From a virus: DNA of 45,782 nt. Location of the stretch: the UHGV virus genome UHGV-0242872. One strand, 5' to 3'. The notes beneath the pieces were generated by a model that was not told the origin of the DNA, did no database searches, and saw only the letters and a list, made by a program, of their open reading frames with translations. The position numbers and the translations under genes were made by a program. Positions 1,922 through 44,287 of the stretch are shown piece by piece (the stretch's first letter is position 1; each line of letters starts with the position of its first letter).

Positions 1922-1950
1922 AAGGGGACTTCGGTCCCCTTTTCTTTTAC
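1922..1950 (+). terminator. intrinsic terminator after capsid gene
   Basis: AAGGGGAC-TTCG-GTCCCCTT hairpin followed by TTCTTTT. Confidence 0.75.
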
Positions 1951-1963
1951 AAAGAGGTAAATT

Positions 1964-2263
1964 ATGGCTAAGACCGGAAAAGGCTTGCCGCGCAGCCTTC
2001 AGAACGTTGACTTTAGCGACCTGGATATCCCCGTCACGCCTGCTACTACCAGCGTAGTTGGTGGGGTTAAAAAGTCAGCTGCTGTAGCTCACCCCCCGGC
2101 CGTCACTGCTGCTGCCGGAGTTCAGGCCGTCGCAGTCCCGACTAAGGCAGAGTTTGATGCGCTTGTAGCGGAGTACAATAAACTCCTAACCGATGTTACC
2201 GCGCTGCGCACTACCGTAGCAAATCTGTTAACCGTGCTTAAAAACGCAGGAACTGTAAGCTAA
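1964..2263 (+). CDS. hypothetical virion protein (possible head decoration)
   Basis: 99 aa ORF with AGAGGT SD; Ala/Val/Thr-rich. Confidence 0.5.
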   Translation: MAKTGKGLPRSLQNVDFSDLDIPVTPATTSVVGGVKKSAAVAHPPAVTAAAGVQAVAVPTKAEFDALVAEYNKLLTDVTALRTTVANLLTVLKNAGTVS

Positions 2264-2275
2264 AGGAGCTTAAAA

Positions 2276-2620
2276 ATGGTTGATGTAATTAAACGTCGCA
2301 TTACCGGTGTGTCCGCCGATACCGTAGGCGCTAAAATCGATATGGCAAATATCGCCCCTGCGTCTTTCTCTACCCCACTAAATGCTACCACCACTGTTAG
2401 TGCGCCCTCCGCATTGACGCTTACCGTTGAGGCTACTGGCGGTCTGGCTCCGTACACTTACCAGTGGTATAAGAATAACAACGCTATCCCAGGCGCTACC
2501 GCAGCCACCTACACCAAAGCCACCACTGTCGCTTCTGCCGACTCCGGCACGTATAAAGTGGTTGTTCACGATGTGTATGGTAATATTATCTCCAGCAGCA
2601 CTGTAGCAACTGTGTCTTAA
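2276..2620 (+). CDS. Ig-like domain protein (possible capsid or tail decoration)
   Basis: AAGGAG SD; bacterial Ig-like signature APYTYQWYKNN...ADSGTYKVVVHD. Confidence 0.55.
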   Translation: MVDVIKRRITGVSADTVGAKIDMANIAPASFSTPLNATTTVSAPSALTLTVEATGGLAPYTYQWYKNNNAIPGATAATYTKATTVASADSGTYKVVVHDVYGNIISSSTVATVS

Positions 2621-2625
2621 TACAA

Positions 2626-2641
2626 CGGCCCTTCGGGGCCG
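2626..2641 (+). terminator. GC hairpin, possible attenuator
   Basis: CGGCCC-TTCG-GGGCCG stem-loop without a U-tract. Confidence 0.3.
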
Positions 2642-2656
2642 TAATAAGGAAAGGTC

Positions 2657-2836
2657 ATGGCAGATAATTATGTAATCCGCGAAAAGTACACCCACGTTGA
2701 TGTTGTTGACGGTCAGGTGATGCCTGTTCGCGGTGTTGTAGACGCGGATGAACTGGTCACTACACAACCGGACAACGAAGAAGCGCACAACAACGGCGGT
2801 GGTGCCAAGCGTCGTCGCCGTAAATCAGAGGAATAA
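2657..2836 (+). CDS. small hypothetical protein (59 aa, basic C-terminus)
   Basis: ATG 2657 with AAGGAAAGG SD, stop TAA 2834-2836; below the ORF-track size cutoff. Confidence 0.4.
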   Translation: MADNYVIREKYTHVDVVDGQVMPVRGVVDADELVTTQPDNEEAHNNGGGAKRRRRKSEE

Positions 2837-2839
2837 TTC

Positions 2840-3352
2840 ATGCCGCTAATCGTGGAAACGGGAGAAATCGTCCCTAATGCTGACAGTTACATTAGCCTGG
2901 CCGACGCCCGCGCGTTAGCGGCTAATTATGGCCTTGAGCTACCGGAAGACGATACCGCTGCGGAAGTAGCTTTGCGCAACGGTGCTACTTATGTCGGGCT
3001 TGCAGAACCGCAGATGTGCGGTCGCCGGGTGTCCGCCGAACAGTCTCTTGCATATCCTCGCACTGGCGTAACGTTAAACGGATTCCCGGTAGCGGATAAT
3101 GTTATTCCTAAACAGGTAATTCTTGCGCAGGTAATCGCGTCCGCCACGTACGGGGCGGGCACAGAAGTGCGGGCTAACTCAGACGGGCGTTCCGTGCAGA
3201 CTGAGCGTGTCGAGGGCGCGGTGACAGTGACGTACTTCAACAACGGCAGCAGTGGAGCCACAACCGCGATTACCGCCGCTGACGACGCTTTACGTCCGTT
3301 ACTGTGTGGCGGTCTTAACAATGGCTTCTCATTTAACGTGTACCGGGGTTAA
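2840..3352 (+). CDS. putative head-tail connector/adaptor protein
   Basis: 170 aa ORF in the head-completion position; weak recollection of gp6-like connector proteins. Confidence 0.4.
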   Translation: MPLIVETGEIVPNADSYISLADARALAANYGLELPEDDTAAEVALRNGATYVGLAEPQMCGRRVSAEQSLAYPRTGVTLNGFPVADNVIPKQVILAQVIASATYGAGTEVRANSDGRSVQTERVEGAVTVTYFNNGSSGATTAITAADDALRPLLCGGLNNGFSFNVYRG

Positions 3353-3354
3353 AA

Positions 3355-3969
3355 ATGGCGAAGACTAAGTCAGAGATGTTTACTCTTATCGGCGCAAACC
3401 TCCCCGATAACACTACCGGGCTTATTACCCCAGCAGCGTTGCGCGAGGTAATGACACAGATGGCTGACTCACCTATTTACGCCACTCCAGGAGTTAAAGA
3501 GGTTGAAGTTCTCCGTGCCGCGTCTACGGTAACCCAAGCGCCTACCGCGGTAGATACGGCATTGCAGTTAACTTTCGGTGCAGCTCAGGGTAGTGCATCC
3601 GACCCGGTAATGATTAATGCTGCGGGGCTGGTTACATTCAACACCGCCGGTAACTACGCCGTTCGCATCAAGTTACAGGCAGGCCGCACAGGTGCCAGCG
3701 GAACGTCTATCCTGTTATCACGCATCCTTCTGAACGGTGCTCAGTACGGCTCACCTGCCGCCACGAAACTGGTAAGCGCGGACACCACAATCCCGATTGA
3801 ATCTCGCGTTGTTATTAACCCAACAGCAGGCCAGACGTTTGCCGTTCAGATTATGCGGGATAGCGTCGGAACTAACTTCGGTGGTGTATACCCGCAAGCG
3901 GCTACCGTAACCGCATGGGGTACAGCCCCGTCCGCGTTGCTGGTTATTTCGAGACTGGAGGCCGCCTGA
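3355..3969 (+). CDS. hypothetical structural protein
   Basis: 204 aa ORF, tightly packed in the structural operon. Confidence 0.5.
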   Translation: MAKTKSEMFTLIGANLPDNTTGLITPAALREVMTQMADSPIYATPGVKEVEVLRAASTVTQAPTAVDTALQLTFGAAQGSASDPVMINAAGLVTFNTAGNYAVRIKLQAGRTGASGTSILLSRILLNGAQYGSPAATKLVSADTTIPIESRVVINPTAGQTFAVQIMRDSVGTNFGGVYPQAATVTAWGTAPSALLVISRLEAA

Positions 3970-19058: not shown

Positions 19059-19193
19059 CTCTTCTGATAACTTCTCCAGTACAAACGCCAGTTGCGCATT
19101 AGCGGCGTCTCTTTGCTGGCGTAGTCGTAGAACCTCCTCTTCGAGTTCCTTGATACGTTTTTGCAATGCCGGAATCGGGGCTATGATGTTCAT
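19056..19193 (-). CDS. small coiled-coil protein (45 aa)
   Basis: ATG 19193 overlaps helicase stop (ATGA); translation MNIIAPIPALQKRIKELEEEVLRLRQQ... Confidence 0.35.
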   Translation of the reverse strand: MNIIAPIPALQKRIKELEEEVLRLRQQRDAANAQLAFVLEKLSEE

Positions 19194-20614
19194 TTCTTAC
19201 CTCGTCTCTTCATGTAGTTAAGCAACTCTTCCTGTACCGATTTCTTCTCGTCGGTACGCGCGGCAACAACCTCGTCCAGTGTGTCTTTAGCAACGATGTG
19301 ATACAGGAACACCGGGCGTTCGTGGCCTGCCTGCTTCTGGCGTACTGGGCCTATACGCTCGACAACCTGCAAATAGTGCTCAAGATTCCAGCCTTGTGAG
19401 ATGAATGCCAGATGATGCCCGCCGTCCTGTAAATTCAAACCATGCCCGGCTGACGCGGGATGCACGCACAAAATCTCGATTTCGCCACGGTTCCACGCTT
19501 CCATCTGCTTATTACCCTTAGCACCTTTCGCGAATGCCTGCGCCTGCGGGAAACGTTTCAGGATACGCTCCAGTTCGTGCTTGAACTGATAGGCGACTAG
19601 CAACGGCGCACCCTGTAACTCCTCCACAATCGACTCAAGCGCGTCCAGTTTCGTGTCGTGCACTTTCTCCCAGTCTTTGGTTGCTTCGCCGTCAGGCCCG
19701 GACACATATACGGCACCGGATGCAATCTGCAAACACTTCGACGTCTTCGCCGCCGCGTTAGCCGCTTCAACTTCTCCGCTTTCCAGTTCCGCGAATAACT
19801 TCTCTTCCATGTCGATGTAAGCCTGACGCGCTTTCTTCGGCAGGTCGATTTCAACCGGTACGATAATCGGCGCTTCACATCCAAACCACTCAGCGGCGTC
19901 AATCGTGAGACTAATGTCCTTCATCTTCTGGTGAATTTCATTATCTGCACCTGGTCGTGCGTGATACTCACGCGCCATCGCCGATTTTCCTTTCTGTACC
20001 GAATTAAACCAGCGGTCGGTGAATGCTGTATACGACGAACCTAGGCGCTCGCCAGCGTCGATAAACCAGTTCTGGCCCCACAAATCCTTGAGGCCGTTTG
20101 GTGACGGTGTACCAGTCAGGTTAATAAAACGCTTAACCCTTCCGAAAGCCACTTTACTAAGCGCCTTTGCACGCTTGCTACCACCTGAACGGCTGCGGAA
20201 TGATTTAAGCTTCGTGCTTTCATCTGCAACGATAACCGTAAAAGGCCAGTCGTCTTTGCCGTAGTAGTCAATCAGCCACTCGATAACCTCATAGTTCGTG
20301 CAAACCACGTTAGCATCTGACTCCAGCGCCGCGATGCGGCGCTTCTCTGAACCAGTCGCATCTACAACACGCAGACATGGGAATTGCCATTTCTCTTGCT
20401 CTGCAGGCCACGTACCAGACGCAACCCGCAGCGGGGCGAGGATTAACACGCGGTCGTCATCATTAAGTTGGCCGTTTCGGAACAGTCGGTTTAATGCCCA
20501 CAGTACGCTGCCAGTCTTCCCAGCGCCCATGCTTGCCCATATGTTGCAGCGATGGTGCCGCAGCATGAACGAAGTCATGAGCTTTTGGTACTCACGCCTT
20601 TGAAACTTACTCAT
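19190..20614 (-). CDS. SNF2/DEAD-like helicase
   Basis: Walker A GAGKTG, DESTK box, LTGTP motif. Confidence 0.8.
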   Translation of the reverse strand: MSKFQRREYQKLMTSFMLRHHRCNIWASMGAGKTGSVLWALNRLFRNGQLNDDDRVLILAPLRVASGTWPAEQEKWQFPCLRVVDATGSEKRRIAALESDANVVCTNYEVIEWLIDYYGKDDWPFTVIVADESTKLKSFRSRSGGSKRAKALSKVAFGRVKRFINLTGTPSPNGLKDLWGQNWFIDAGERLGSSYTAFTDRWFNSVQKGKSAMAREYHARPGADNEIHQKMKDISLTIDAAEWFGCEAPIIVPVEIDLPKKARQAYIDMEEKLFAELESGEVEAANAAAKTSKCLQIASGAVYVSGPDGEATKDWEKVHDTKLDALESIVEELQGAPLLVAYQFKHELERILKRFPQAQAFAKGAKGNKQMEAWNRGEIEILCVHPASAGHGLNLQDGGHHLAFISQGWNLEHYLQVVERIGPVRQKQAGHERPVFLYHIVAKDTLDEVVAARTDEKKSVQEELLNYMKRRGKK

Positions 20615-21536
20615 TTACCGCCCCCATGAATGCCTTTATAAATTCAGCAGCTACTTGCGGGACGATGGCATTGCCGTAACCGCGCAATCGTCCCACTCTG
20701 GCGGGTATCCCATCAGCCAGCGGGAATGTGCCGGGTTCAACTGGCCTGAATTTTCCATCCCTGCATCCGAGCCAGTCAGCACCTGACCAGAAGCCGTAAT
20801 GCGAATAGGTTGTGTTATTTTCAGCCCCTGCTCCGTCGAGTAGTCCAGCCTGTCGAAAGTCCGGTCCTTTCCGTCCTTGCGAATCACTGTCTCTCCGCTC
20901 CCTCTGTAATCGTTCGCGGTCGGCGTCGCCCATGCCGTCATCGCGGCGGCCCACCCCAGTTTGTTCGGTTTCGTCCTGCCGTCTGTGCTGCGCATGTTCA
21001 CGTCGTTTGTTATCAGTGATACCGCTGGCGTGGGCCAATCTATGCGCGCCGAAGAAAAGTCGGTCGCGTTTGTGCGGTGCGCCGACGCTACAAGCTGGGA
21101 GTACGGCAAACCCGACGGCGTAGTTTTCTCCTTCCAGGTGAGTTTGTAAATCGCACATCCACGATTTTGCAATTGCTGGCGCAACCTGCTCCCCAAAGAG
21201 GACTGGAGGGTGGCACTCGCTGATGAGGTCGAGGAACACAGGTGCGAGGTGTCTCGGGTCGAACTGTCCGAGTTGCTTTCCCGCTGCGCTAAACGGTTGG
21301 CAAGGCGGGCTTCCCGTCCAGAGAGGCGCATCTTCCGGAACTCCCGCAAGTCTGAGCGCGAGGGGCCAGCCGCCGATACCAGCGAAAAAATGACACTGGG
21401 TGAATCCGTCGAGGTCTTCTGGCTTAACTTCAGTAATGCTTCTTTCATCTACAACTCCAAAAGGTATGTGACCCTGTTTTATTAATTCACGCAGCCACGC
21501 GGCTGCGCCTTTATCCCATTCGTTGTAATAGTTCAT
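20607..21536 (-). CDS. DNA (cytosine-5)-methyltransferase, orphan
   Basis: motif I FAGIGG, motif IV SPPCQPFS, ENV-like GEQV, RDR, motif X GNAIV; no restriction partner seen. Confidence 0.8.
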   Translation of the reverse strand: MNYYNEWDKGAAAWLRELIKQGHIPFGVVDERSITEVKPEDLDGFTQCHFFAGIGGWPLALRLAGVPEDAPLWTGSPPCQPFSAAGKQLGQFDPRHLAPVFLDLISECHPPVLFGEQVAPAIAKSWMCDLQTHLEGENYAVGFAVLPACSVGAPHKRDRLFFGAHRLAHASGITDNKRREHAQHRRQDETEQTGVGRRDDGMGDADRERLQRERRDSDSQGRKGPDFRQAGLLDGAGAENNTTYSHYGFWSGADWLGCRDGKFRPVEPGTFPLADGIPARVGRLRGYGNAIVPQVAAEFIKAFMGAVNE

Positions 21537-21724
21537 TTTGCCACCAGTACCAGTTCCTTCCTCCCGAACGCCGTAACGTTTCCAGCTACGTCTTCGATAA
21601 CCAGTTTACCGTTAGACTCGACGAACACCGTATCAACGGCAACAGGACGACGTGTCTTAACGTTGAAAATCATGTCACCCGGTACAATGTCACGTGCAGG
21701 TTTGCGGTCGTATTCGTGTTTCAT
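21533..21724 (-). CDS. hypothetical protein (63 aa)
   Basis: first gene after internal promoter; ATGA coupling to methyltransferase. Confidence 0.45.
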   Translation of the reverse strand: MKHEYDRKPARDIVPGDMIFNVKTRRPVAVDTVFVESNGKLVIEDVAGNVTAFGRKELVLVAK

Positions 21725-21754: not shown

Positions 21755-22042
21755 CTAACTATAATAGTTCGCTATTAGGTCGTCAACCTGTTTAAACGAA
21801 CCGACGACAAAAACATTTGCACCTCTTTTACGCATCCGCTCGTGCTCGCGTAACTGGTGGGGGTCGGGCTTCGTGTTTTCGTCTTTCTTAACCTCAACGA
21901 ACCAGACGATGCCGCCGGGGAGAATTACCAGCAGGTCAGGAGCGCCGGAACGTCCTTCGTAGGAAAGTTTACGAACGAGGCCACCAAGGGCCTCGAATCG
22001 CTCTTTTGCGTATTTCTGTATTTTGCCCTCAGGCGTACTCAT
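21755..22042 (-). CDS. VRR-NUC domain nuclease
   Basis: PD-(D/E)XK-type motif PDLLVILPGG...FVEVKK. Confidence 0.7.
   Translation of the reverse strand: MSTPEGKIQKYAKERFEALGGLVRKLSYEGRSGAPDLLVILPGGIVWFVEVKKDENTKPDPHQLREHERMRKRGANVFVVGSFKQVDDLIANYYS
21758..21786 (-). promoter_or_regulatory. sigma70-like promoter TTGACG-N17-TATAGT
   Basis: minus strand; AATAG-N4-CTATT palindrome 21763-21776 in spacer. Confidence 0.55.
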
Positions 22043-22127
22043 CTACACACCCCTCACGTTTCGTATGCTCAACCCCACAGCGCGGACAGATTCGACAGTC
22101 TTCTTCGTAGAACCAGTAAATTTTCAT
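22029..22127 (-). CDS. small zinc-ribbon protein (32 aa)
   Basis: CRICPRCG...EGC; ATGA coupled to upstream gene; below track cutoff. Confidence 0.3.
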   Translation of the reverse strand: MKIYWFYEEDCRICPRCGVEHTKREGCVDEYA

Positions 22128-22255
22128 TCCAGCACCCACAGATAAATTGCTACTAACATACCCAATACAGCGACCATCATGCCATATTGACCCTCGTGAC
22201 AGTAGACACCGGCGGCGAATCCCGCCAGTACCGCAATAATCAGTTTACTTGGCAT
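22124..22255 (-). CDS. small membrane protein (43 aa)
   Basis: ATG 22255 two nt after HNH stop with ACGGGGG SD; hydrophobic helix; trimmed from track ORF 22124-22507. Confidence 0.35.
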   Translation of the reverse strand: MPSKLIIAVLAGFAAGVYCHEGQYGMMVAVLGMLVAIYLWVLE

Positions 22256-22256
22256 T

Positions 22257-22754
22257 CTAGCCCCCGTGATTCTCATGAAAGCCGTAGCGAACAATTGCAG
22301 ATTTCCGCGCACAAGCCGCGTCAAATATATTGTCATGGTGGCCCAAGAATATAAGTCTACCGTCAACGAATATCCCTGCTTTCCATTTAGCCGCCCGTGC
22401 GTTCCAGTGCACACCTGTGAGCCCCGACTTGTTATCTTTTCTCCGAGATGCGTTTCGGTTGTTATCAGTACGCGATACTTTCCGAAGGTTGCATGCACGA
22501 TTATCATCCAGGATGTGATTTATATGGTCTACTTCATCATCAGGACCTAAACGGTCATTGTTATACATCTCCCACGCGATACGATTAGCCCTGTAACTAA
22601 CCCCTCTGACGACGATACAGATGTAGCCCCTCTTACTCGGGCTACCGGCTTCGTCTCCGGCGTTTATACTGTGTCTCGGGGAATACTTCCATCGTATCTT
22701 CCCCGTGTCAGATTCGTAGTAGAAATGGTCATGCCAATTAATTAAATCTCTCAT
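22257..22754 (-). CDS. HNH homing endonuclease with AP2-like DNA-binding domain
   Basis: HNH motif DHINHILDDNRACNLRKVSRTDNNRN, C-terminal AP2-like GVHWNARAAKWKAGIFVDGRLIFLG; GAGGGGG SD. Confidence 0.8.
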   Translation of the reverse strand: MRDLINWHDHFYYESDTGKIRWKYSPRHSINAGDEAGSPSKRGYICIVVRGVSYRANRIAWEMYNNDRLGPDDEVDHINHILDDNRACNLRKVSRTDNNRNASRRKDNKSGLTGVHWNARAAKWKAGIFVDGRLIFLGHHDNIFDAACARKSAIVRYGFHENHGG

Positions 22755-22768
22755 AAATCACCCCCTCA

Positions 22769-24970
22769 TCATTTAGCGTATCTGTACATTTCGCTACCTT
22801 CCGCTACAAGAGGGAACCCCTCGGCCCATTCCGGCAACGCACACATTAATTTTTCCAGTTCGGCCACCGTGTACTCGGGGGTATCTGGAGTTTCGCATAC
22901 TAGTTCATCGTGTACCGAAAGCACGATAGGATATCCGCCACGCTCAACATTAATCATCGCATATGCTAGTAAATCACGGCACAGCGCCTGAACAATGTTT
23001 TCGCAGGCTTTGCCGCCGTGTGTGTACAAGGTAGTCCATTGGCGGGTTAACTGGTTTTCGCCTTGATACTTGATTCGCACATTCGTGTTCACCCGTCCAT
23101 CTTCATCTGTTTCCTTTGTCACACTAACGCCGATTCCTGGATACGAGAGGATACGACCTGACGGCAACTCCATACACAACCACCAACCCGGAACCTTCCT
23201 ACCGGATGAATCAAATTCTACAGTACGCCATATGCGGATAGCCCTTTCCCCATTCCTGCGCAAGTGTGCCCCCGCCCAAAATTCACGACCAGGATTACGC
23301 ACAGCTGCTAAAATTCCGTCTTTAAGGTCGCGCCAGAACGCTACTGTTTCCGGGTGTGACTCGCGCCACATACGCTTGATAGCATCACATGTGCGCCACA
23401 CTTTCTTATCAAGAATATATGATGGCCTATCGTCCTTTTCACCTGTATGCGGGGGGCGCTTGGCTTCCTGGATGCGCGCCCATTCATATCCTCTCGCGGT
23501 GGCTGACCAGATGTGGTCGGGGAATGTACCGTCCATTGTTTTTGCCATCTCAATAAGGTCAAGACCTAAGTTTTTAGCAAACGTAACGAACGCTCCGACG
23601 CCGCCTTCATATCCGAGTCCCAGTTCGCATGCTTTGCCTATCTGTCTGATTTCCTTGAAGTTTTTCTTAATATCGTCTTGGTCCATACCGAACATCTTAC
23701 CTGCGGTTACGCAGTAAATATCCAGCCCGGCGCGGAACGTATCGAGCGCGGTTTCTTCACCCGCCAGCCACGCAAGCCCACGACCCTCAACGTTAGAATA
23801 ATCGGCGACGACAAACTTATGTCCTGCTTCCGGAATGATGCAGCTGCGAACCGTCGATGCCGTTAGCTTGGCTACATCGAAACGGCGGTGAGCACGACCC
23901 TTAAGTAACGCTGAAATGCCTTTATCCAGTTCATCATCGTGATAGTACCCGCGCGCCAGGTTCTGCGGCTGGAAGCCTTTACCCGCCCATCGCAGAGTAC
24001 GTTTTGCCCCGCCATACTGCAAACAACCACGGCGACGGTCGTCCGATGAGCGGCCTAACAGCAGCGGGTTATATTTCGTGGACGCTGTTGACGCGGCCCC
24101 GAGGCGCATTTCGATAATCATCCGGGCGTCGTCCGGTAAATCATCATCTGCCAACAGGTCGTTAAGCGTCGACTTCTGTGCGTTGTGTATGCGGTGTGCG
24201 GGGGCCAGTTCACGTAGAATAGGCAGAAAGTCCTTACCGGTAAGCGAGCCGCCGTATTTACGTTGAGCTTCTTCCTGTAACTGTGCCTTGTGCTTCTCTA
24301 CGGCTTCAATCGCGGCTTCCGCCAGTGCGACGTCAACCTTAAATCCGCGGTCGTTGATTAACTGGTCAAGTTCCAGTACACGGTCTTCGAACTCGGAGTT
24401 ACCCCAACGCGGCAGCTTATGGAAGACTTCACGCATCGCAGTGATGTCGCTCACGGCGTACCTGATGAACATCGCCCACTCGTCAGGGTGAGTTTCTGCG
24501 GTGTAGCGGCGGATTTTGTAGTTCTTCGGCGTCGGTTTAGAGAAACGCTTAATCAGAGCCTTGCCGCGTTTATCTTTCGCGTTGTCTGCAGACACGCCCA
24601 GCACTTCGCACAGCGCATCAAGAGAACCCGGCAGCGCGTGACGGAACGCCCAAATCATAGTATCAATGGTGTTACTTACCGGAATATCAAAGCCCCAGCA
24701 GTGTTTCATGATTAGGCGATCGAAAAGTCCACCGTTGTGCCACACAATCTTGATGCGGCTGTTGGGCTTAACAAGGCGGCGCAGTGCGCGGTGTAAATCC
24801 CCCGGCATGTCGCTGCCGTCGGTGCAATCCCATACCCGCACAGGTTCGTCGTCAAAAGCATATGTACAGATAAGCACTTCGGTTGACGGGTGTTCGGCGT
24901 AAGCGTAAGAACCGACTTTCTTCAAATCGGCTTCTGAGAATGTTTCAAAGTCTAAGAACAGGTAACTCAT
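22769..24970 (-). CDS. DNA polymerase I (family A) with 3'-5' exonuclease domain
   Basis: 733 aa; Exo I FLDFETFS, motif B RQIGKACELGLGYEGG, motif C LSVHDELV. Confidence 0.9.
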   Translation of the reverse strand: MSYLFLDFETFSEADLKKVGSYAYAEHPSTEVLICTYAFDDEPVRVWDCTDGSDMPGDLHRALRRLVKPNSRIKIVWHNGGLFDRLIMKHCWGFDIPVSNTIDTMIWAFRHALPGSLDALCEVLGVSADNAKDKRGKALIKRFSKPTPKNYKIRRYTAETHPDEWAMFIRYAVSDITAMREVFHKLPRWGNSEFEDRVLELDQLINDRGFKVDVALAEAAIEAVEKHKAQLQEEAQRKYGGSLTGKDFLPILRELAPAHRIHNAQKSTLNDLLADDDLPDDARMIIEMRLGAASTASTKYNPLLLGRSSDDRRRGCLQYGGAKRTLRWAGKGFQPQNLARGYYHDDELDKGISALLKGRAHRRFDVAKLTASTVRSCIIPEAGHKFVVADYSNVEGRGLAWLAGEETALDTFRAGLDIYCVTAGKMFGMDQDDIKKNFKEIRQIGKACELGLGYEGGVGAFVTFAKNLGLDLIEMAKTMDGTFPDHIWSATARGYEWARIQEAKRPPHTGEKDDRPSYILDKKVWRTCDAIKRMWRESHPETVAFWRDLKDGILAAVRNPGREFWAGAHLRRNGERAIRIWRTVEFDSSGRKVPGWWLCMELPSGRILSYPGIGVSVTKETDEDGRVNTNVRIKYQGENQLTRQWTTLYTHGGKACENIVQALCRDLLAYAMINVERGGYPIVLSVHDELVCETPDTPEYTVAELEKLMCALPEWAEGFPLVAEGSEMYRYAK

Positions 24971-25029: not shown

Positions 25030-25656
25030 TTAGCGGCGGCGACGTTCGCGGCGCGGTGCTTCATCTTCTTCGTCGTCTTCCAGGTCATTGACGCTCGCAG
25101 CGACTTTAGAACCGCCGAACGCTTTGCCTTCGCCAACGTATTTAATCGCCAGCAGGTTAACGCCGAGGACTTTGTATTTCTGGCTGAACCAGATTTCAAC
25201 GCTTACGTTAGCTAAGCATCCGCTGTAAACCTGTTCACCTTCAATCTGTTCGCCGTCTACGTTGAAGTCCTGCTCTACCTGAGTCTCACCTTTTTTAGAG
25301 GTTACAATCAGCGGCTGTTTCTGTGCCTTCGCTTTGAAGTAGAAGCCTTCCGGGAAGTCTTCAAACGGATTGTCGCGCTCGGCAATGTCTTTAATCGCGC
25401 ATTTATCCATGTGCTTACCTTCACCGTAGTTGGACTTCATCCATTTCTCGGCAGCGGCTGCGCCTAACGCTTCTTCAACTACAGCGTAAACGGTGTCATA
25501 GAGCGCATCGATTTGCGCATGGTCAGACGGCAGGATAATCGTTGCGCTGTACTGACCTTTAGTGATTGATCCATCGTCGTTTTCACGGTCTTTTTCGCGT
25601 TCGAATACGTTAACCCAGGCAGTGTTTACTTTACGCAGATTTAATTTCAGTCCCAT
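25030..25656 (-). CDS. putative ssDNA-binding protein (T7 gp2.5-like / DUF2815-like)
   Basis: 208 aa with acidic tail DLEDDEEDE then basic RRERRRR; adjacent to exonuclease and polymerase. Confidence 0.5.
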   Translation of the reverse strand: MGLKLNLRKVNTAWVNVFEREKDRENDDGSITKGQYSATIILPSDHAQIDALYDTVYAVVEEALGAAAAEKWMKSNYGEGKHMDKCAIKDIAERDNPFEDFPEGFYFKAKAQKQPLIVTSKKGETQVEQDFNVDGEQIEGEQVYSGCLANVSVEIWFSQKYKVLGVNLLAIKYVGEGKAFGGSKVAASVNDLEDDEEDEAPRRERRRR

Positions 25657-25714: not shown

Positions 25715-25743
25715 ACTATAATAGCTAACTATTCATGTGTCAA
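25715..25743 (-). promoter_or_regulatory. sigma70-like promoter TTGACA-N17-TATAGT
   Basis: minus strand; palindrome 25720-25733 in spacer. Confidence 0.6.
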
Positions 25744-38790: not shown

Positions 38791-39300
38791 ATGAAGCTGA
38801 AACTTAAGCAGCCATCGCCAGAGGTGGTGCAAGCTGCACATGAAGAAGCTGTTAGCGCAAACCGTCGCCGTAAACAACCGCGCGGTAAACAGAGCCTTTA
38901 TCAATCATCCCGTAATTCCGCTGCGCTGTGGGACCCGGACTATTGCGACGAATTGATTCGTTTCTTTGACCGCGCGTCGTGGGAGCTTGTGCCAACGTCT
39001 AAGGGTGATGAACGCCCACTGATTCAGGATAAGCCGCCGTCACTGGCCCGCTTCGCCTTACACATCGGCGTAACTATCCCGATAATTAAGCTGTGGCTGC
39101 GCGAGATTCCCGCATTTGCAGAAGCCTGGGAGACAGCACAGGCGCTGGAAGAGGCATACTTCACTGAAACGGGGGCCGCGGGCATCTCCGCTACGTTCGC
39201 TGCCGCTAAGCTGGGCCTGAATAAAACAGTTGTCGCCGAAGAAGTACGCGACGAGCCAATCAGCGAAGTAACAATTAAGGTGGTGTCCGGTGAACGTTAA
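38791..39300 (+). CDS. terminase small subunit
   Basis: ATG 38791 with AAGGGGA SD; basic N-terminus; immediately precedes and overlaps terL. Confidence 0.55.
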   Translation: MKLKLKQPSPEVVQAAHEEAVSANRRRKQPRGKQSLYQSSRNSAALWDPDYCDELIRFFDRASWELVPTSKGDERPLIQDKPPSLARFALHIGVTIPIIKLWLREIPAFAEAWETAQALEEAYFTETGAAGISATFAAAKLGLNKTVVAEEVRDEPISEVTIKVVSGER

Positions 39301-40561
39301 TATCACGGCAACGGAGCCGCAAGGCGCGTTTCTCGGTATGCATTGCAAGTTTCCGGCATTCGTAGCTGGCTTCGGTACGGGTAAATCCGAAGTTATGTGC
39401 AACTCTGCACTACTCGACAGCATGGAAGGTGGTAGCGATTCTATCATCGCCATGTATGAGCCGACCTATGACCTGGTGCGCCTCATCCTTGCACCGCGTA
39501 TGGAAGAAAAGCTCACCGACTGGGGTATCCGGTACAAATACAACAAGTCTGACAACATAATCTATACGTCTTCCGGACAATTTGGGGATTTTGTTCTGCG
39601 TACACTTGATAATCCAGCAAGAATCGTTGGCTACGAATCGTTTCGTGCGAAAATCGACGAGTTGGACACCCTTAACATGGAGCACGCCGAGCACGCGTGG
39701 AACAAAGTCATCGCCCGTAACCGCCAGTTGCCGCGGACATATAAACCTATTACACCGAAACCTGCTAATACCGTTTCCGTGTTCACTACCCCGGAAGGAT
39801 TCCGTTTCGTACATGACCGCTGGGTAGTCAAAAAGAATCCAGGCTACGAGATGATTCAGGCGTCCACCCTGTCTAACCCGTTCCTGCCAGAAGATTATGT
39901 GCAGTCGTTACGCGACACATACCCAGGTCAGTTGATTGACGCCTACATCGACGGCAAGTTCGTAAACCTCACGTCCGGAACGGTATACTATGCTTACGAC
40001 CGCAGGAAAAACAGCAGTCGCGAAACAATCAATCCCGGCGAGACTCTGTATATTGGGCAGGACTTTAACGTAGGTCACATGGCGAGCACGGTTTACGTGC
40101 AACGCGGTAAGGTCTGGCACGCTGTTGCCGAGTTGGTTGATATGTTCGATACGCCTGACGTAGTGCGGGCCATAACTGAGCGATGGAAAAGTAAGGGCCA
40201 CTATATCGTTATGTACCCGGACGCCAGCGGCAAAAACCGTAAAAGCAACAACGCCAGTACCTCAGACATCGCTCAGTTACAGCAGGCCGGTTTCGAAGTA
40301 CGCGCCAAATCAACAAACCCGCCGGTTAAAGACCGCGTATCAGCAATGAACAAGGCGCTTGAATCTGGTATGGTCATGATTAATGAGCAGGCATGCCCGG
40401 TTACGGCGCGATGCCTTGAGCAACAGGCTTACGACAAGAACGGCGAACCGGATAAATCGGGTGGTGTGGACCACCAGAACGACGGGACCACATATCCTAT
40501 CGCGTATGAAATGCCGATTCGCAAACCAGTTATTAATGTCCCGGTGACTTTCGCACTTTAA
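39290..40561 (+). CDS. terminase large subunit
   Basis: 423 aa; Walker A GFGTGKS near N-terminus; GTG start overlapping terS end. Confidence 0.85.
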   Translation: MNVNITATEPQGAFLGMHCKFPAFVAGFGTGKSEVMCNSALLDSMEGGSDSIIAMYEPTYDLVRLILAPRMEEKLTDWGIRYKYNKSDNIIYTSSGQFGDFVLRTLDNPARIVGYESFRAKIDELDTLNMEHAEHAWNKVIARNRQLPRTYKPITPKPANTVSVFTTPEGFRFVHDRWVVKKNPGYEMIQASTLSNPFLPEDYVQSLRDTYPGQLIDAYIDGKFVNLTSGTVYYAYDRRKNSSRETINPGETLYIGQDFNVGHMASTVYVQRGKVWHAVAELVDMFDTPDVVRAITERWKSKGHYIVMYPDASGKNRKSNNASTSDIAQLQQAGFEVRAKSTNPPVKDRVSAMNKALESGMVMINEQACPVTARCLEQQAYDKNGEPDKSGGVDHQNDGTTYPIAYEMPIRKPVINVPVTFAL

Positions 40562-42249: not shown

Positions 42250-42296
42250 TTTTCATCTCCTGTTTAAGTTAACTGAATAGTACCCTATTATATTGG
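42246..42296 (+). repeat. 51-nt direct repeat, copy 1 (promoter, operator and SD of a minus-strand small gene)
   Basis: 50/51 identical to 44977-45027. Confidence 0.8.
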
Positions 42297-42305
42297 TGTC
42301 TGCAA
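42277..42305 (-). promoter_or_regulatory. sigma70-like promoter TTGCAG-N17-TACTAT
   Basis: minus strand; palindrome AATAG-tacc-CTATT 42276-42289 overlaps the -10; part of 51-nt repeat. Confidence 0.5.
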
Positions 42306-42349
42306 ATATTATTTTTATGCGTTACACTGGCGATACTACAGGAGGGCAC

Positions 42350-44287
42350 ATGAGCTTACTTACATCCCTAATTAGCCACCAGATATGGCTGCAACGCACC
42401 GCATCCGGTGAAGTGAAAGACCTCACACCATTCATTCAGGAGATGCGGGATGAAATCAAACGGCAAGTGCTGTTATTCGGTGACGACGGTCGTAGCACCG
42501 CGCGACTGAATAAACTGTTACGCGACCTTGAAGAAGCACTGACCGGGCTTACAGGTGACTGGCAAACAAAGCTGACAGAAGACCTTAAGGAACTGGCGGC
42601 ATATGAGGCTGAGTGGAACGTAAAGACACTGACCGCCAACGTAGCTGCGGAATTTGTTACACCTACCGCTGAACAGGTGTGGGCTGCTGCCGAGTTTCAA
42701 CCGTTATCGTTGAGCGACAAGCCTGTTGACTTCACTAAGCTGATGTCAGGTTGGGGTGAAACCGAAGTCGCGCGCCTGGTAACGGGTGTTAAGATGGGCT
42801 TTGTTCAGGGTAAGACAACACGGCAGATTGTTACAGAAGTAGTCGGTAAAGGCGGGCTGGCTGACGTATCAGAGAAATACGCCGCTACCGTAATCCGCAC
42901 TGCGCTGTCTCACGTGTCCAACGAAGCCCGCAATGAAACATACCGCCAGAACGACGATATCATCGAGAAGTACGAATGGGTGTCAACGCTGGACAGCCGT
43001 ACCAGTACAACGTGTTTCACGGCTGAAACAGAATTAGCGCCCATCGCGGGGATGGACGCGGTAATGCGCGGACTCTATTCAGGAAAAATCTTTACCATCG
43101 AACTTTCCAACGGCGAGAAGTTCAGTGGCACCCCGAAACACCCTGTACTCACGCAATACGGATGGACTCCGCTTGATGAACTCGATCCAACTAAGCATGT
43201 CTTGTATACCACTGTTGACAAAGTGACTGTGCTCGAAACAGTGAAGAACATAAACATGCCAGCCAGAGCGGATTATATTTTTAATACGCTCGCTGATTTC
43301 CCCATCAGGAAAATGGTAAGCACGAGTCCCGCGGCAACAGATTTCTATGGCGATGGAGTGGGACTCAATGGCAAAATCGACATTGTACGGACCGATTGCA
43401 AACTGCGGAACTACGTCCACGCCAGCGGAATTAAACAATTCAAAAGCGAGGGTTTCAGTCTTATTCATAGCGCCGCTTTGCTGTCGGACGATAGCTCTGG
43501 CGATTTTCTCCTCCGGGGTGAATGTCCTGTGAGTGTGCCCGCGCTTAGCGAGGCCAAGTGTTTTGACCATAGAATAGAAAACTGTTTTGCTTACTTGGGT
43601 CCTTCTTATGCACTCAATAGGCGGAACGCCGGACTCGAACAATTCTATAGCCCTTTTTTGATTCAAAATGGTGTCGTTAGAAACCCAACCACGGGGTCGA
43701 TCATGCATGAGTCCGAGCTTCTTGAGAAATGTTGTTACCGTGGTGGTAGTGACGCCGTAATTCTTGGCTATGATGCTGGCGGGAGTGCCATCTCGGTACA
43801 AAGAACAAATATCATCCGCATAAGCGTCGAGTTTAGAACGTGCCATGTTTATACCCTCTCTAGTAGTCAAGGATATTATACAGCAGGTAGTGCGATAGTC
43901 AAGAATTGCAGGGCCAGAGACGGGATGACGTGGGAAATTGGTAAGGGGCCGATGCCCCCAGCCCATCCGAACTGCCGGTCGTGCACGGCTCCGGTAATCA
44001 GTTCCGAGTTCGACTTCCTCGATAAAGGCGCAAAACGCGCGGCTAAAGGCGCGGAAGGTGGCACTCAGGTAAGCGCAGACACCACTTACTACGAGTTCCT
44101 TAAACAACAACCGGCGTGGTTTCAGGACCAGGCGCTCGGCCCGGTGCGAGGTAAGATTTTCCGTAACAGCGGTATATCGCCGGAAGAGTTTCGCGTAATA
44201 TCTGTAGATGGTTTCGGGAATCCGCTCACGCTTAAGCAGATGGCGGAACTCGATAAACGTGTTGCTGATTATCTGAAAGGGGAATAA
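42350..44287 (+). CDS. head morphogenesis protein (Mu F / SPP1 gp7-like) interrupted by an in-frame intein
   Basis: ATG 42350 with AGGAGGG SD; exteins join to give DSRTSTT|CRARDGMTWEIGKGPMPPAHPNCRSC; precursor 645 aa, predicted mature 347 aa. Confidence 0.75.
   Translation: MSLLTSLISHQIWLQRTASGEVKDLTPFIQEMRDEIKRQVLLFGDDGRSTARLNKLLRDLEEALTGLTGDWQTKLTEDLKELAAYEAEWNVKTLTANVAAEFVTPTAEQVWAAAEFQPLSLSDKPVDFTKLMSGWGETEVARLVTGVKMGFVQGKTTRQIVTEVVGKGGLADVSEKYAATVIRTALSHVSNEARNETYRQNDDIIEKYEWVSTLDSRTSTTCFTAETELAPIAGMDAVMRGLYSGKIFTIELSNGEKFSGTPKHPVLTQYGWTPLDELDPTKHVLYTTVDKVTVLETVKNINMPARADYIFNTLADFPIRKMVSTSPAATDFYGDGVGLNGKIDIVRTDCKLRNYVHASGIKQFKSEGFSLIHSAALLSDDSSGDFLLRGECPVSVPALSEAKCFDHRIENCFAYLGPSYALNRRNAGLEQFYSPFLIQNGVVRNPTTGSIMHESELLEKCCYRGGSDAVILGYDAGGSAISVQRTNIIRISVEFRTCHVYTLSSSQGYYTAGSAIVKNCRARDGMTWEIGKGPMPPAHPNCRSCTAPVISSEFDFLDKGAKRAAKGAEGGTQVSADTTYYEFLKQQPAWFQDQALGPVRGKIFRNSGISPEEFRVISVDGFGNPLTLKQMAELDKRVADYLKGE
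43079..43846 (-). CDS. HTH plus DUF559/Vsr-like PD-(D/E)XK endonuclease encoded antisense inside the intein
   Basis: ATG 43846 with GAGAGGG SD; two HTH-like segments; endonuclease core YNVDFAIESHSIAIEICCRG...GWHVYVLH; track ORF extends to 44110. Confidence 0.6.
   Translation of the reverse strand: MARSKLDAYADDICSLYRDGTPASIIAKNYGVTTTTVTTFLKKLGLMHDRPRGWVSNDTILNQKRAIELFESGVPPIECIRRTQVSKTVFYSMVKTLGLAKRGHTHRTFTPEEKIARAIVRQQSGAMNKTETLAFELFNSAGVDVVPQFAIGPYNVDFAIESHSIAIEICCRGTRAYHFPDGEISERIKNIIRSGWHVYVLHCFEHSHFVNSGIQDMLSWIEFIKRSPSVLREYRVFRGATELLAVGKFDGKDFS
43875..43902 (-). promoter_or_regulatory. consensus sigma70 promoter TTGACT-N16-TATAAT inside the intein 3' end
   Basis: -35 at 43902-43897, -10 at 43880-43875 on minus strand, about 30 nt upstream of the antisense ATG. 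Confidence 0.6.

Follow-up and report, generated by a model that had tools for sequence, protein, structure and literature searches.

How does a small nuclease gene come to lie at the very end of an essential polymerase gene without damaging it, and what has kept it there? The virus genome UHGV-0242872 (the window, meaning the whole stretch of 45,782 nucleotides (nt) analysed here) raises this question at positions 22257..22754 on the minus strand, where an open reading frame (ORF) of 165 amino acids (aa), with an ATG start and a TAG stop at 22257..22259, follows the family A DNA polymerase gene polA. It is likely, in our view, that this ORF encodes a homing endonuclease of the free-standing HNH(HNN)-AP2 class; its gene sits on a 540-nt cassette at the end of polA in a Kagunavirus-type phage. 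The window phage itself is a Kagunavirus-like coliphage. The top matches to the region are Kagunavirus (Guernseyvirinae) phages of Escherichia and Raoultella at 90–95% identity (443 GenBank phage records matched), and the closest record over 24 kb shows 93.6% identity at 86% coverage, with no identical record in GenBank.

We asked how the gene is distributed among these relatives. An unbiased IMG/VR sample anchored on the polA C-terminus gave 73 loci, 43 of which contain the small gene of 43 aa that lies next downstream in the window. At 41 of these 43 loci the site is empty and the 43-aa gene starts 7 nt before the end of polA; one locus (L013) holds the HNH gene and one (L037) another insert. 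Phage RP180 is likewise empty, and empty sites are found in ~95% of related phages. Of the 443 GenBank relatives with a match to the polA region, three hold DNA of the HNH gene, namely vB_EcoS_XY2 (96.4% identity to the window gene), vB_VIPECOMC04 (94.8%) and vB_VIPECOTPH05A (93.6%), and the XY2 and VIPECOMC04 orthologues are already labelled ‘HNH endonuclease’ there. The original prediction, made from the letters alone, had read the gene as an insertion, and comparison of synteny with insert-free relatives upholds this: presence and absence alternate at one exact site, empty alleles dominate, and the gene is not a universal, syntenic fixture lacking empty sites.

Where exactly does the insert begin and end? 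Against the empty-site alleles, the cassette spans 22256..22795, and its 540 nt stand in for 16 nt, for example CAGGAGTTAAAACGTT in RP180. Empty alleles end polA with …GAAGGT (G/C)(C/A)GGAG(ATGAAG/TTAAAA)CGN TATGCYAAGTAA, and these final polA codons also contain the ATG of the 43-aa gene. In the window the corresponding sequence reads …GAAGGT / AGCGAAATGTACAGATACGCTAAATGA TGAGGGGGTGATTT ATG…(HNH)…TAGA / ATGCCAAGTAA, where slashes mark the junctions. The left edge of the insert thus falls inside polA, 8 codons ahead of its stop, and the polymerase remains intact because the cassette supplies a recoded copy of these last 8 codons. The HNH start codon follows 14 nt past the polA stop (22769..22771). 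At the other edge, the ATG of the 43-aa gene stands 1 nt after the HNH stop (TAGAATG), the same ATG that overlaps the polA stop in empty alleles, and the cassette re-creates the stop/start coupling for this downstream gene. The prediction of an intergenic insertion was therefore right in placing the insert at the polA 3′ end, but the site is no intergenic gap: polA and the 43-aa gene overlap there when it is empty. The junctions are the same in all nine insert-bearing copies. No other 60 nt of the region are conserved as well as the empty junction (mean column identity 0.88–0.95), although the pattern used for selection itself required parts of this sequence, and its conservation lends weak support to the idea that the element targets a conserved site.

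The polA tail supplied by the cassette, AGCGAAATGTACAGATACGCTAAATGA (22769..22795, minus strand), encodes SEMYRYAK and a stop in place of the native (A/Q)E(M/L)KRYAK and stop. Over its 27 nt it differs from each of 49 empty-type tails at 11–15 positions (median 13), as against a median of 5 differences when distinct empty-type tails are compared with one another, and the changes are mostly synonymous. Exact-pattern scans of IMG/VR and metagenome contigs found the recoded tail in polA context only where an insert follows. The HNH-AP2 gene was found in nine distinct genomes pooled from IMG/VR, metagenome contigs, GenBank and one Logan contig: the window, XY2, VIPECOMC04, VIPECOTPH05A, L013, L079, L090, L095 and L098.

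The site is not reserved for this gene. At exactly the same polA-end position, three Kagunavirus contigs (L037, L092 and L094) carry a gene for a Cys-rich, Endonuclease VII-like His-Me nuclease of 235 aa (L037 3277..3984, the same contig as L086), which matches phrog_1035 ‘endonuclease VII’ (E=4.5e-30) and has no significant match in Pfam. This gene is unrelated to the HNH-AP2 gene, yet it is preceded by the same recoded polA tail (AGCGAAATGTACAGATACGC…), and its stop codon falls at the polA-stop position of the empty alleles, within …GATGCCAAGTAA. With one gene in nine genomes and the other in three, a single recoded tail is thus common to two unrelated nucleases at one site. Conceivably the tail acts as a portable ‘landing pad’, or as an immunity module, used by two mutually replacing nuclease genes, a possibility that we put forward tentatively and regard as doubtful at present; if true, homing genes would be seen directly, at the genomic level, to succeed one another or to compete for one essential-polymerase target. 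In the literature on HNH-AP2 genes we found no description of an insert within the last polA codons with a recoded tail, nor of a tail common to two unrelated nuclease genes.

Is the protein equipped to act as an endonuclease? Its catalytic motif is intact and an AP2 fold is present, as had been read from its sequence. Pfam HNH_3 matches aa 55–100 (E=1.4e-6; 28.3 bits, cut-off 24.8 bits), and the ORF matches the PHROG family phrog_99 ‘HNH endonuclease’ at E=7.8e-57. In an alignment of the ORF with 43 database homologues (44 sequences; identity 38–98% by BLASTP and 35–98% in the alignment), residues D76, H77, N79, N85, N89 and N101 are unchanged throughout. The HNH_3/His-Me finger core (aa 55–100; 22455..22592, minus strand), with DH at 76–77, N89 and N101, takes the DH…N…N (‘HNN’) form without Cys dyads, which has been described for HNN-AP2 phage endonucleases (PMC2248197). 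Ahead of it lies an N-terminal β-strand region (aa 1–54; 22593..22754, minus strand) that aligns with the N-terminal DNA-binding region of the intron-encoded endonuclease I-HmuI. An AlphaFold2 model of the product (mean pLDDT 89.8) places strands at aa 11–14, 19–22, 45–49 and 52–55. I-HmuI (1u3e) is the top structural match of this model in the PDB (Foldseek E=4.8e-4; 18% identity in the structural alignment), and it also ranks first in the PDB for the profile of the 44 sequences, which matches it over aa 9–108 (E=2.5e-7).

The C-terminal part of the protein (aa ~110–158; 22281..22427, minus strand) forms an AP2-like DNA-binding domain of a three-stranded sheet and a helix. Searched with the ORF alone, Pfam AP2 stays under its 33.3-bit cut-off (E=0.023, 15.4 bits), and we assign the domain despite this because the family profile and the structure model agree. 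The profile matches plant AP2 domains of the PDB, Arabidopsis WRI1 (7wq5, E=2.5e-6) and TEM1 (7et4, E=1.3e-3), and the C-terminal sheet and helix of the model superpose on the AP2 domains of TEM1, WRI1 and AtERF1 at 1.4 Å over 46–50 residues (Foldseek probability 1.00); three homologues carry a precomputed PF00847 match. Plants co-opted AP2 domains, which are DNA-binding modules, as transcription factors (PMC10448857), and one could accordingly imagine a DNA-binding regulator whose AP2 domain serves transcription or replication control and whose HNH motif is catalytically irrelevant. We give this proposal hardly any credence, given that the catalytic His-Me residues are invariant across the 44 homologues, that the gene is dispensable in most relatives, and that neither regulator-like conservation nor target repeats were seen. 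Within the window, tblastn identified no paralogue of the HNH gene.

How faithful is this lineage to its site? A tblastn search with the HNH-AP2 protein finds homologues in 2883 phage records, of which the nearest outside Guernseyvirinae-type phages reach at most ~50% identity. At 57–65% identity stands a sister clade made up of Salmonella phage vB_STM-ZS and the metagenomic proteins P0004, P0006 and P0012, in which the HNH gene begins with an ATG overlapping the polA stop. Members of this clade always sit at the polA end, so the association of this endonuclease lineage with the 3′ end of polA holds across genera.

The history of the gene can be read from the differences between its copies. 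Among the seven intact ones, the ratio of nonsynonymous to synonymous divergence (dN/dS) is 0.04–0.15 in every pair but one (0.31), with dS reaching 0.30. The intact copies are under strong purifying selection, and function has been maintained in the protein over a long period. Such selection in the face of considerable synonymous divergence could also be claimed for a nuclease retained because it benefits the phage, whether by degrading or excluding co-infecting relatives (marker exclusion at polA) or by processing DNA in replication, with homing secondary or absent; the 63%-identical sister clade holding the same position, the placement in the replication operon and the preserved translational coupling also favour this explanation. 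We nonetheless consider it unlikely, since ~95% of close relatives replicate without the HNH-AP2 gene, frameshifted copies occur, and an unrelated nuclease gene can fill the same slot. Competitive advantage and homing are, moreover, not mutually exclusive.

The frameshifted copies number two of the nine. In vB_VIPECOTPH05A (PQ429079; L005 ~2970..3469) an extra T is found in a T run after codon 11, and the record annotates no coding sequence there; in CYGL01001533.1 (L095 1034..1529) a 1-nt shift follows codon 78. These two may represent decay, as expected in the life cycle of a homing gene. Together with the low frequency of the gene and flanks bare of any co-conversion signature, they are also what can be said for an inactive former homing gene, passively carried, spread by general recombination only and now decaying. 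The window copy is intact, however, with its catalytic residues all conserved, and a dN/dS far below 1 in seven intact copies is unexpected for a dead gene; we regard this explanation as quite improbable.

Does the cassette move? The 500 nt downstream of it in the window are 98–100% identical to insert-free RP180 and 87–93% identical to insert-bearing phages, and the 100 nt upstream are again closest to RP180 (94%). Comparing nine filled with 42 empty alleles, we found a single flanking single-nucleotide polymorphism (SNP; position −43) that is weakly associated with the insert. Given these flank identities and the near absence of SNP linkage, the backgrounds around the cassette are diverse, and the breakpoints lie at its edges. 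Such a pattern fits mobility of the cassette, although by itself it cannot separate homing from ordinary recombination.

From the architecture of the protein and its site we infer a cycle of the following kind. The HNH gene would be co-transcribed with polA, and in a mixed infection the enzyme would bind DNA through its N-terminal region and its AP2 domain. Nicking or cutting of the insert-free allele would follow, at or close to the conserved, doubly constrained overlap of the polA end and the 43-aa gene (…GAAGGT GCGGAGATGAAGCGT TATGCYAAGTAA…), and recombinational repair off an insert-bearing genome would copy the cassette into the cut one. Carrier DNA would escape cutting because its polA tail is recoded and the site itself is physically split.

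Several observations weigh against this account. Free-standing HNH-type endonucleases can cut tens to hundreds of base pairs off their insertion point, so the cut need not fall at the polA end. The polA tail of the sister clade is not recoded, and recoding is thus not essential for carrying such a gene at this site. No co-conversion tract was detected in the flanks of the nine filled and 42 empty alleles, and the mosaic flanks could stem from ordinary homologous recombination. The gene also shows no foreign compositional signature when its G+C content is set against windows of the same size (47.6% versus 50.6% for the window as a whole, 19th percentile). A dS of up to 0.30 between copies indicates a long-resident, low-frequency element and not a recent sweep, and the two frameshifts may be sequencing or assembly errors. 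Even with these points taken together, no rival, be it competitive benefit, a dead relic or a regulator, is better supported than homing.

Beyond good annotation the finding matters little. It does provide a clean natural pair of empty and filled alleles, with a nuclease gene lodged in the overlap of an essential polymerase gene and its neighbour and neither gene damaged, and with this system homing could be measured in a group of coliphages other than T4. Nucleases may also drive the mosaic boundaries of therapeutic Kagunavirus phages.

The genes of the local module all lie on the minus strand. First in transcription order is the gene of a single-stranded DNA-binding protein (SSB; 25030..25656), followed by polA (22769..24970; 733 aa; Pfam DNA_pol_A, E=2.2e-18; phrog_17, E=3.7e-139), whose 3′ end is the insertion site, and by the HNH-AP2 ORF. 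A Shine-Dalgarno sequence, GAGGGGG, can be read at 22761..22767, directly after the polA stop and 6 nt before the ATG at 22754, in agreement with the prediction that the gene has its own. The nearest strong promoter-like site that a consensus scan identified lies upstream of the SSB gene, TTGACA-17-TATAGT (25715..25743, minus strand), and is a candidate promoter of an SSB-polA-HNH operon; from polA to the HNH gene, the same kind of scan gave neither a promoter-like nor a terminator-like site. Most simply, then, the HNH gene would be expressed from the replication operon by way of its own Shine-Dalgarno sequence.

Downstream of the HNH gene come the 43-aa gene, which encodes a membrane protein (22124..22255; phrog_10404, E=8.2e-32), and a mini-ORF of 32 aa (MKIYWFYEEDCRICPRCGVEHTKREGCVDEYA; 22029..22127; phrog_38225, E=1.2e-25) with a CxxC…CxxC-like pattern. 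The mini-ORF overlaps both of its neighbours: its ATG shares the sequence ATGA with the stop of the 43-aa gene, and its 3′ end runs into the start of the VRR-NUC gene (21755..22042). The placement of the HNH gene between polA and VRR-NUC was accordingly correct on the polA side, to which it is directly 3′, but VRR-NUC does not adjoin it, as these two small genes intervene. The stretch from the 43-aa gene to VRR-NUC varies between 85 and ~430 nt across relatives, and in L018 and L053 it holds another HNH gene, 33% identical (~3463..3888). A further HNH gene (phrog_99) lies directly upstream of polA in vB_VIPECOMC04 (L003 5109..5582) and vB_VIPECOTPH05A (L005 290..763), so that polA is flanked on both sides by nuclease genes in these two phages. 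Neither of the extra HNH genes is present in the window. Beyond VRR-NUC, the module continues with an ORF of 63 aa (21533..21724), a C5-methyltransferase gene (20607..21536) and an SNF2 helicase gene (19190..20614).

The original prediction had counted a second selfish insertion in this genome, an endonuclease nested in an intein. The ORF at 42293..44287 (plus strand) encodes a MuF-like minor head protein of 664 aa with an internal insert of ~330 aa (~900–1000 nt), bounded at about TSTTC/FTAE…AIVKN/CRARDG. The insertion is real and is present in four of 253 related GenBank records, which cover at least 80% of the gene, against 52–55% in most other listed relatives. Two of the four carry the annotation ‘minor head protein with inserted intein’. 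The Pfam Intein_splicing match is sub-threshold (E=3e-4). The nested endonuclease found no backing, as Pfam recognised no LAGLIDADG, HNH or GIY-YIG domain in the insert and PHROGs returned head-protein families only. Elsewhere in the group, polA encodes 1025–1049 aa instead of 733 aa in some relatives, and the SNF2 helicase has a Hom_end_hint (intein) match (loci L079 927..4004, L082 and L083 1..3011, and L080 4615..6504). Intein-like or other insertions in replication genes seem common in these phages.

The C5-methyltransferase gene of the module deserves separate mention, and is probably of more interest than the HNH-AP2 finding. Its main frame (frame A; 20607..21536, minus strand; 309 aa; phrog_363, E=6e-87) encodes an M.HhaI-like catalytic half with motifs I–VIII and a C-terminal GNAIVP. 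Wholly inside it, in the +1 frame, lies a nested, deeply conserved ORF of 265 aa (frame B; 20651..21448, minus strand), which matches a different ‘DNA methyltransferase’ PHROG (phrog_1008, E=2.8e-60) and contains WPTPxxxD and LNPxxxxWLMGxPxEW motifs. Both frames are open in the window and in 13 of 13 relatives tested (frame-A identity to the window 55–96%), and synonymous-codon shuffles of frame A yield so long a +1 ORF at P≤0.001 in each of these 14 sequences. When the C-terminal 165 aa of frame B served as the query, 2393 database clusters were retrieved, and one member, 36% identical, shows the same nested two-frame layout (L099 1760..2872 and 1944..2837) in a ~880-kb metagenome contig, beside a gene of the Ead/Ea22 family, a kind found in lambdoid prophages. 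Either two genuinely overlapping genes or one methyltransferase with a frameshift could underlie the locus, and we found no literature on the arrangement. The idea that XY2 annotates the alternative frame was rejected, since XY2 uses frame A; its methyltransferase is a 265-aa version of the window's type. The slot is variable, and in RP180 (L002 821..1504) it is occupied by an unrelated methyltransferase of 227 aa without BLASTP similarity.

With which known systems, then, does the gene at the polA end compare? The closest structure is I-HmuI (1u3e), which is encoded in an intron of Bacillus phage SPO1 and which the window protein resembles over aa 9–108 in its N-terminal DNA-binding strands and its HNH core. 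A phage DNA polymerase gene is the target of I-HmuI too, and the enzyme nicks DNA in a strand-specific manner, so that nicking is a live option for the HNH-AP2 protein as well. The two differ in that a group I intron encodes I-HmuI, whose C-terminal module is a helix-turn-helix, whereas the window protein is free-standing and ends in AP2. Small HNH proteins of the HK97 gp74 type, known from cos phages, adjoin terminase genes and are needed for packaging. We rejected a terminase-associated role of this kind for the window gene, which lies ~17 kb from the large terminase gene (39290..40561), includes an AP2 domain and is missing in most relatives.

For the proposed cycle, the intronless homing of the T4 Seg and Mob genes serves as a working model only, and homing by the window gene would follow its outline. 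There, a nuclease gene located between conserved essential genes, or at the edge of one, cuts the allele lacking it in mixed infection and is copied in with adjacent sequence, and differences in the carrier allele give immunity. The enzymes themselves are of other kinds: the Seg family are GIY-YIG nucleases, and Mob belongs to a different HNH subgroup, His-Me group 1 (PMC5714182).

The nearest counterparts are the free-standing HNH(HNN)-AP2 homing endonuclease genes, a long-recognised phage family (PMC2248197) whose members are placed in His-Me finger group 2 (HNH_3/zf-His_Me_endon) with I-HmuI (PMC5714182). Given this family, the existing GenBank labels and the many homologues, the window gene is of a known kind. 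Examples include the HNN-AP2 genes of Xanthomonas phages Xp10, OP1 and Xop411, the ICP1-like ‘IPA-HNH’ genes, and relatives in T1, T5 and RB43. The origin of AP2 from HNH endonucleases is credited to Magnani et al. (2004), as cited in PMC10448857 and PMC2248197. In the survey of ICP1-like phages, 29% of HNH-AP2 genes adjoin DNA polymerase genes, and nuclease content is unstable at fixed positions around essential genes (PMC10448857). The window gene shares with this family the N-terminal DH…N…N HNH without zinc-binding Cys dyads and the C-terminal AP2; it is likewise free-standing, varies in presence between close relatives, has degenerate copies and lies beside a DNA polymerase gene, as its counterparts often do. 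What sets it apart from HNN-AP2 genes as described in these papers is the placement of its insert within the final 8 polA codons, together with the recoded replacement tail that it brings.

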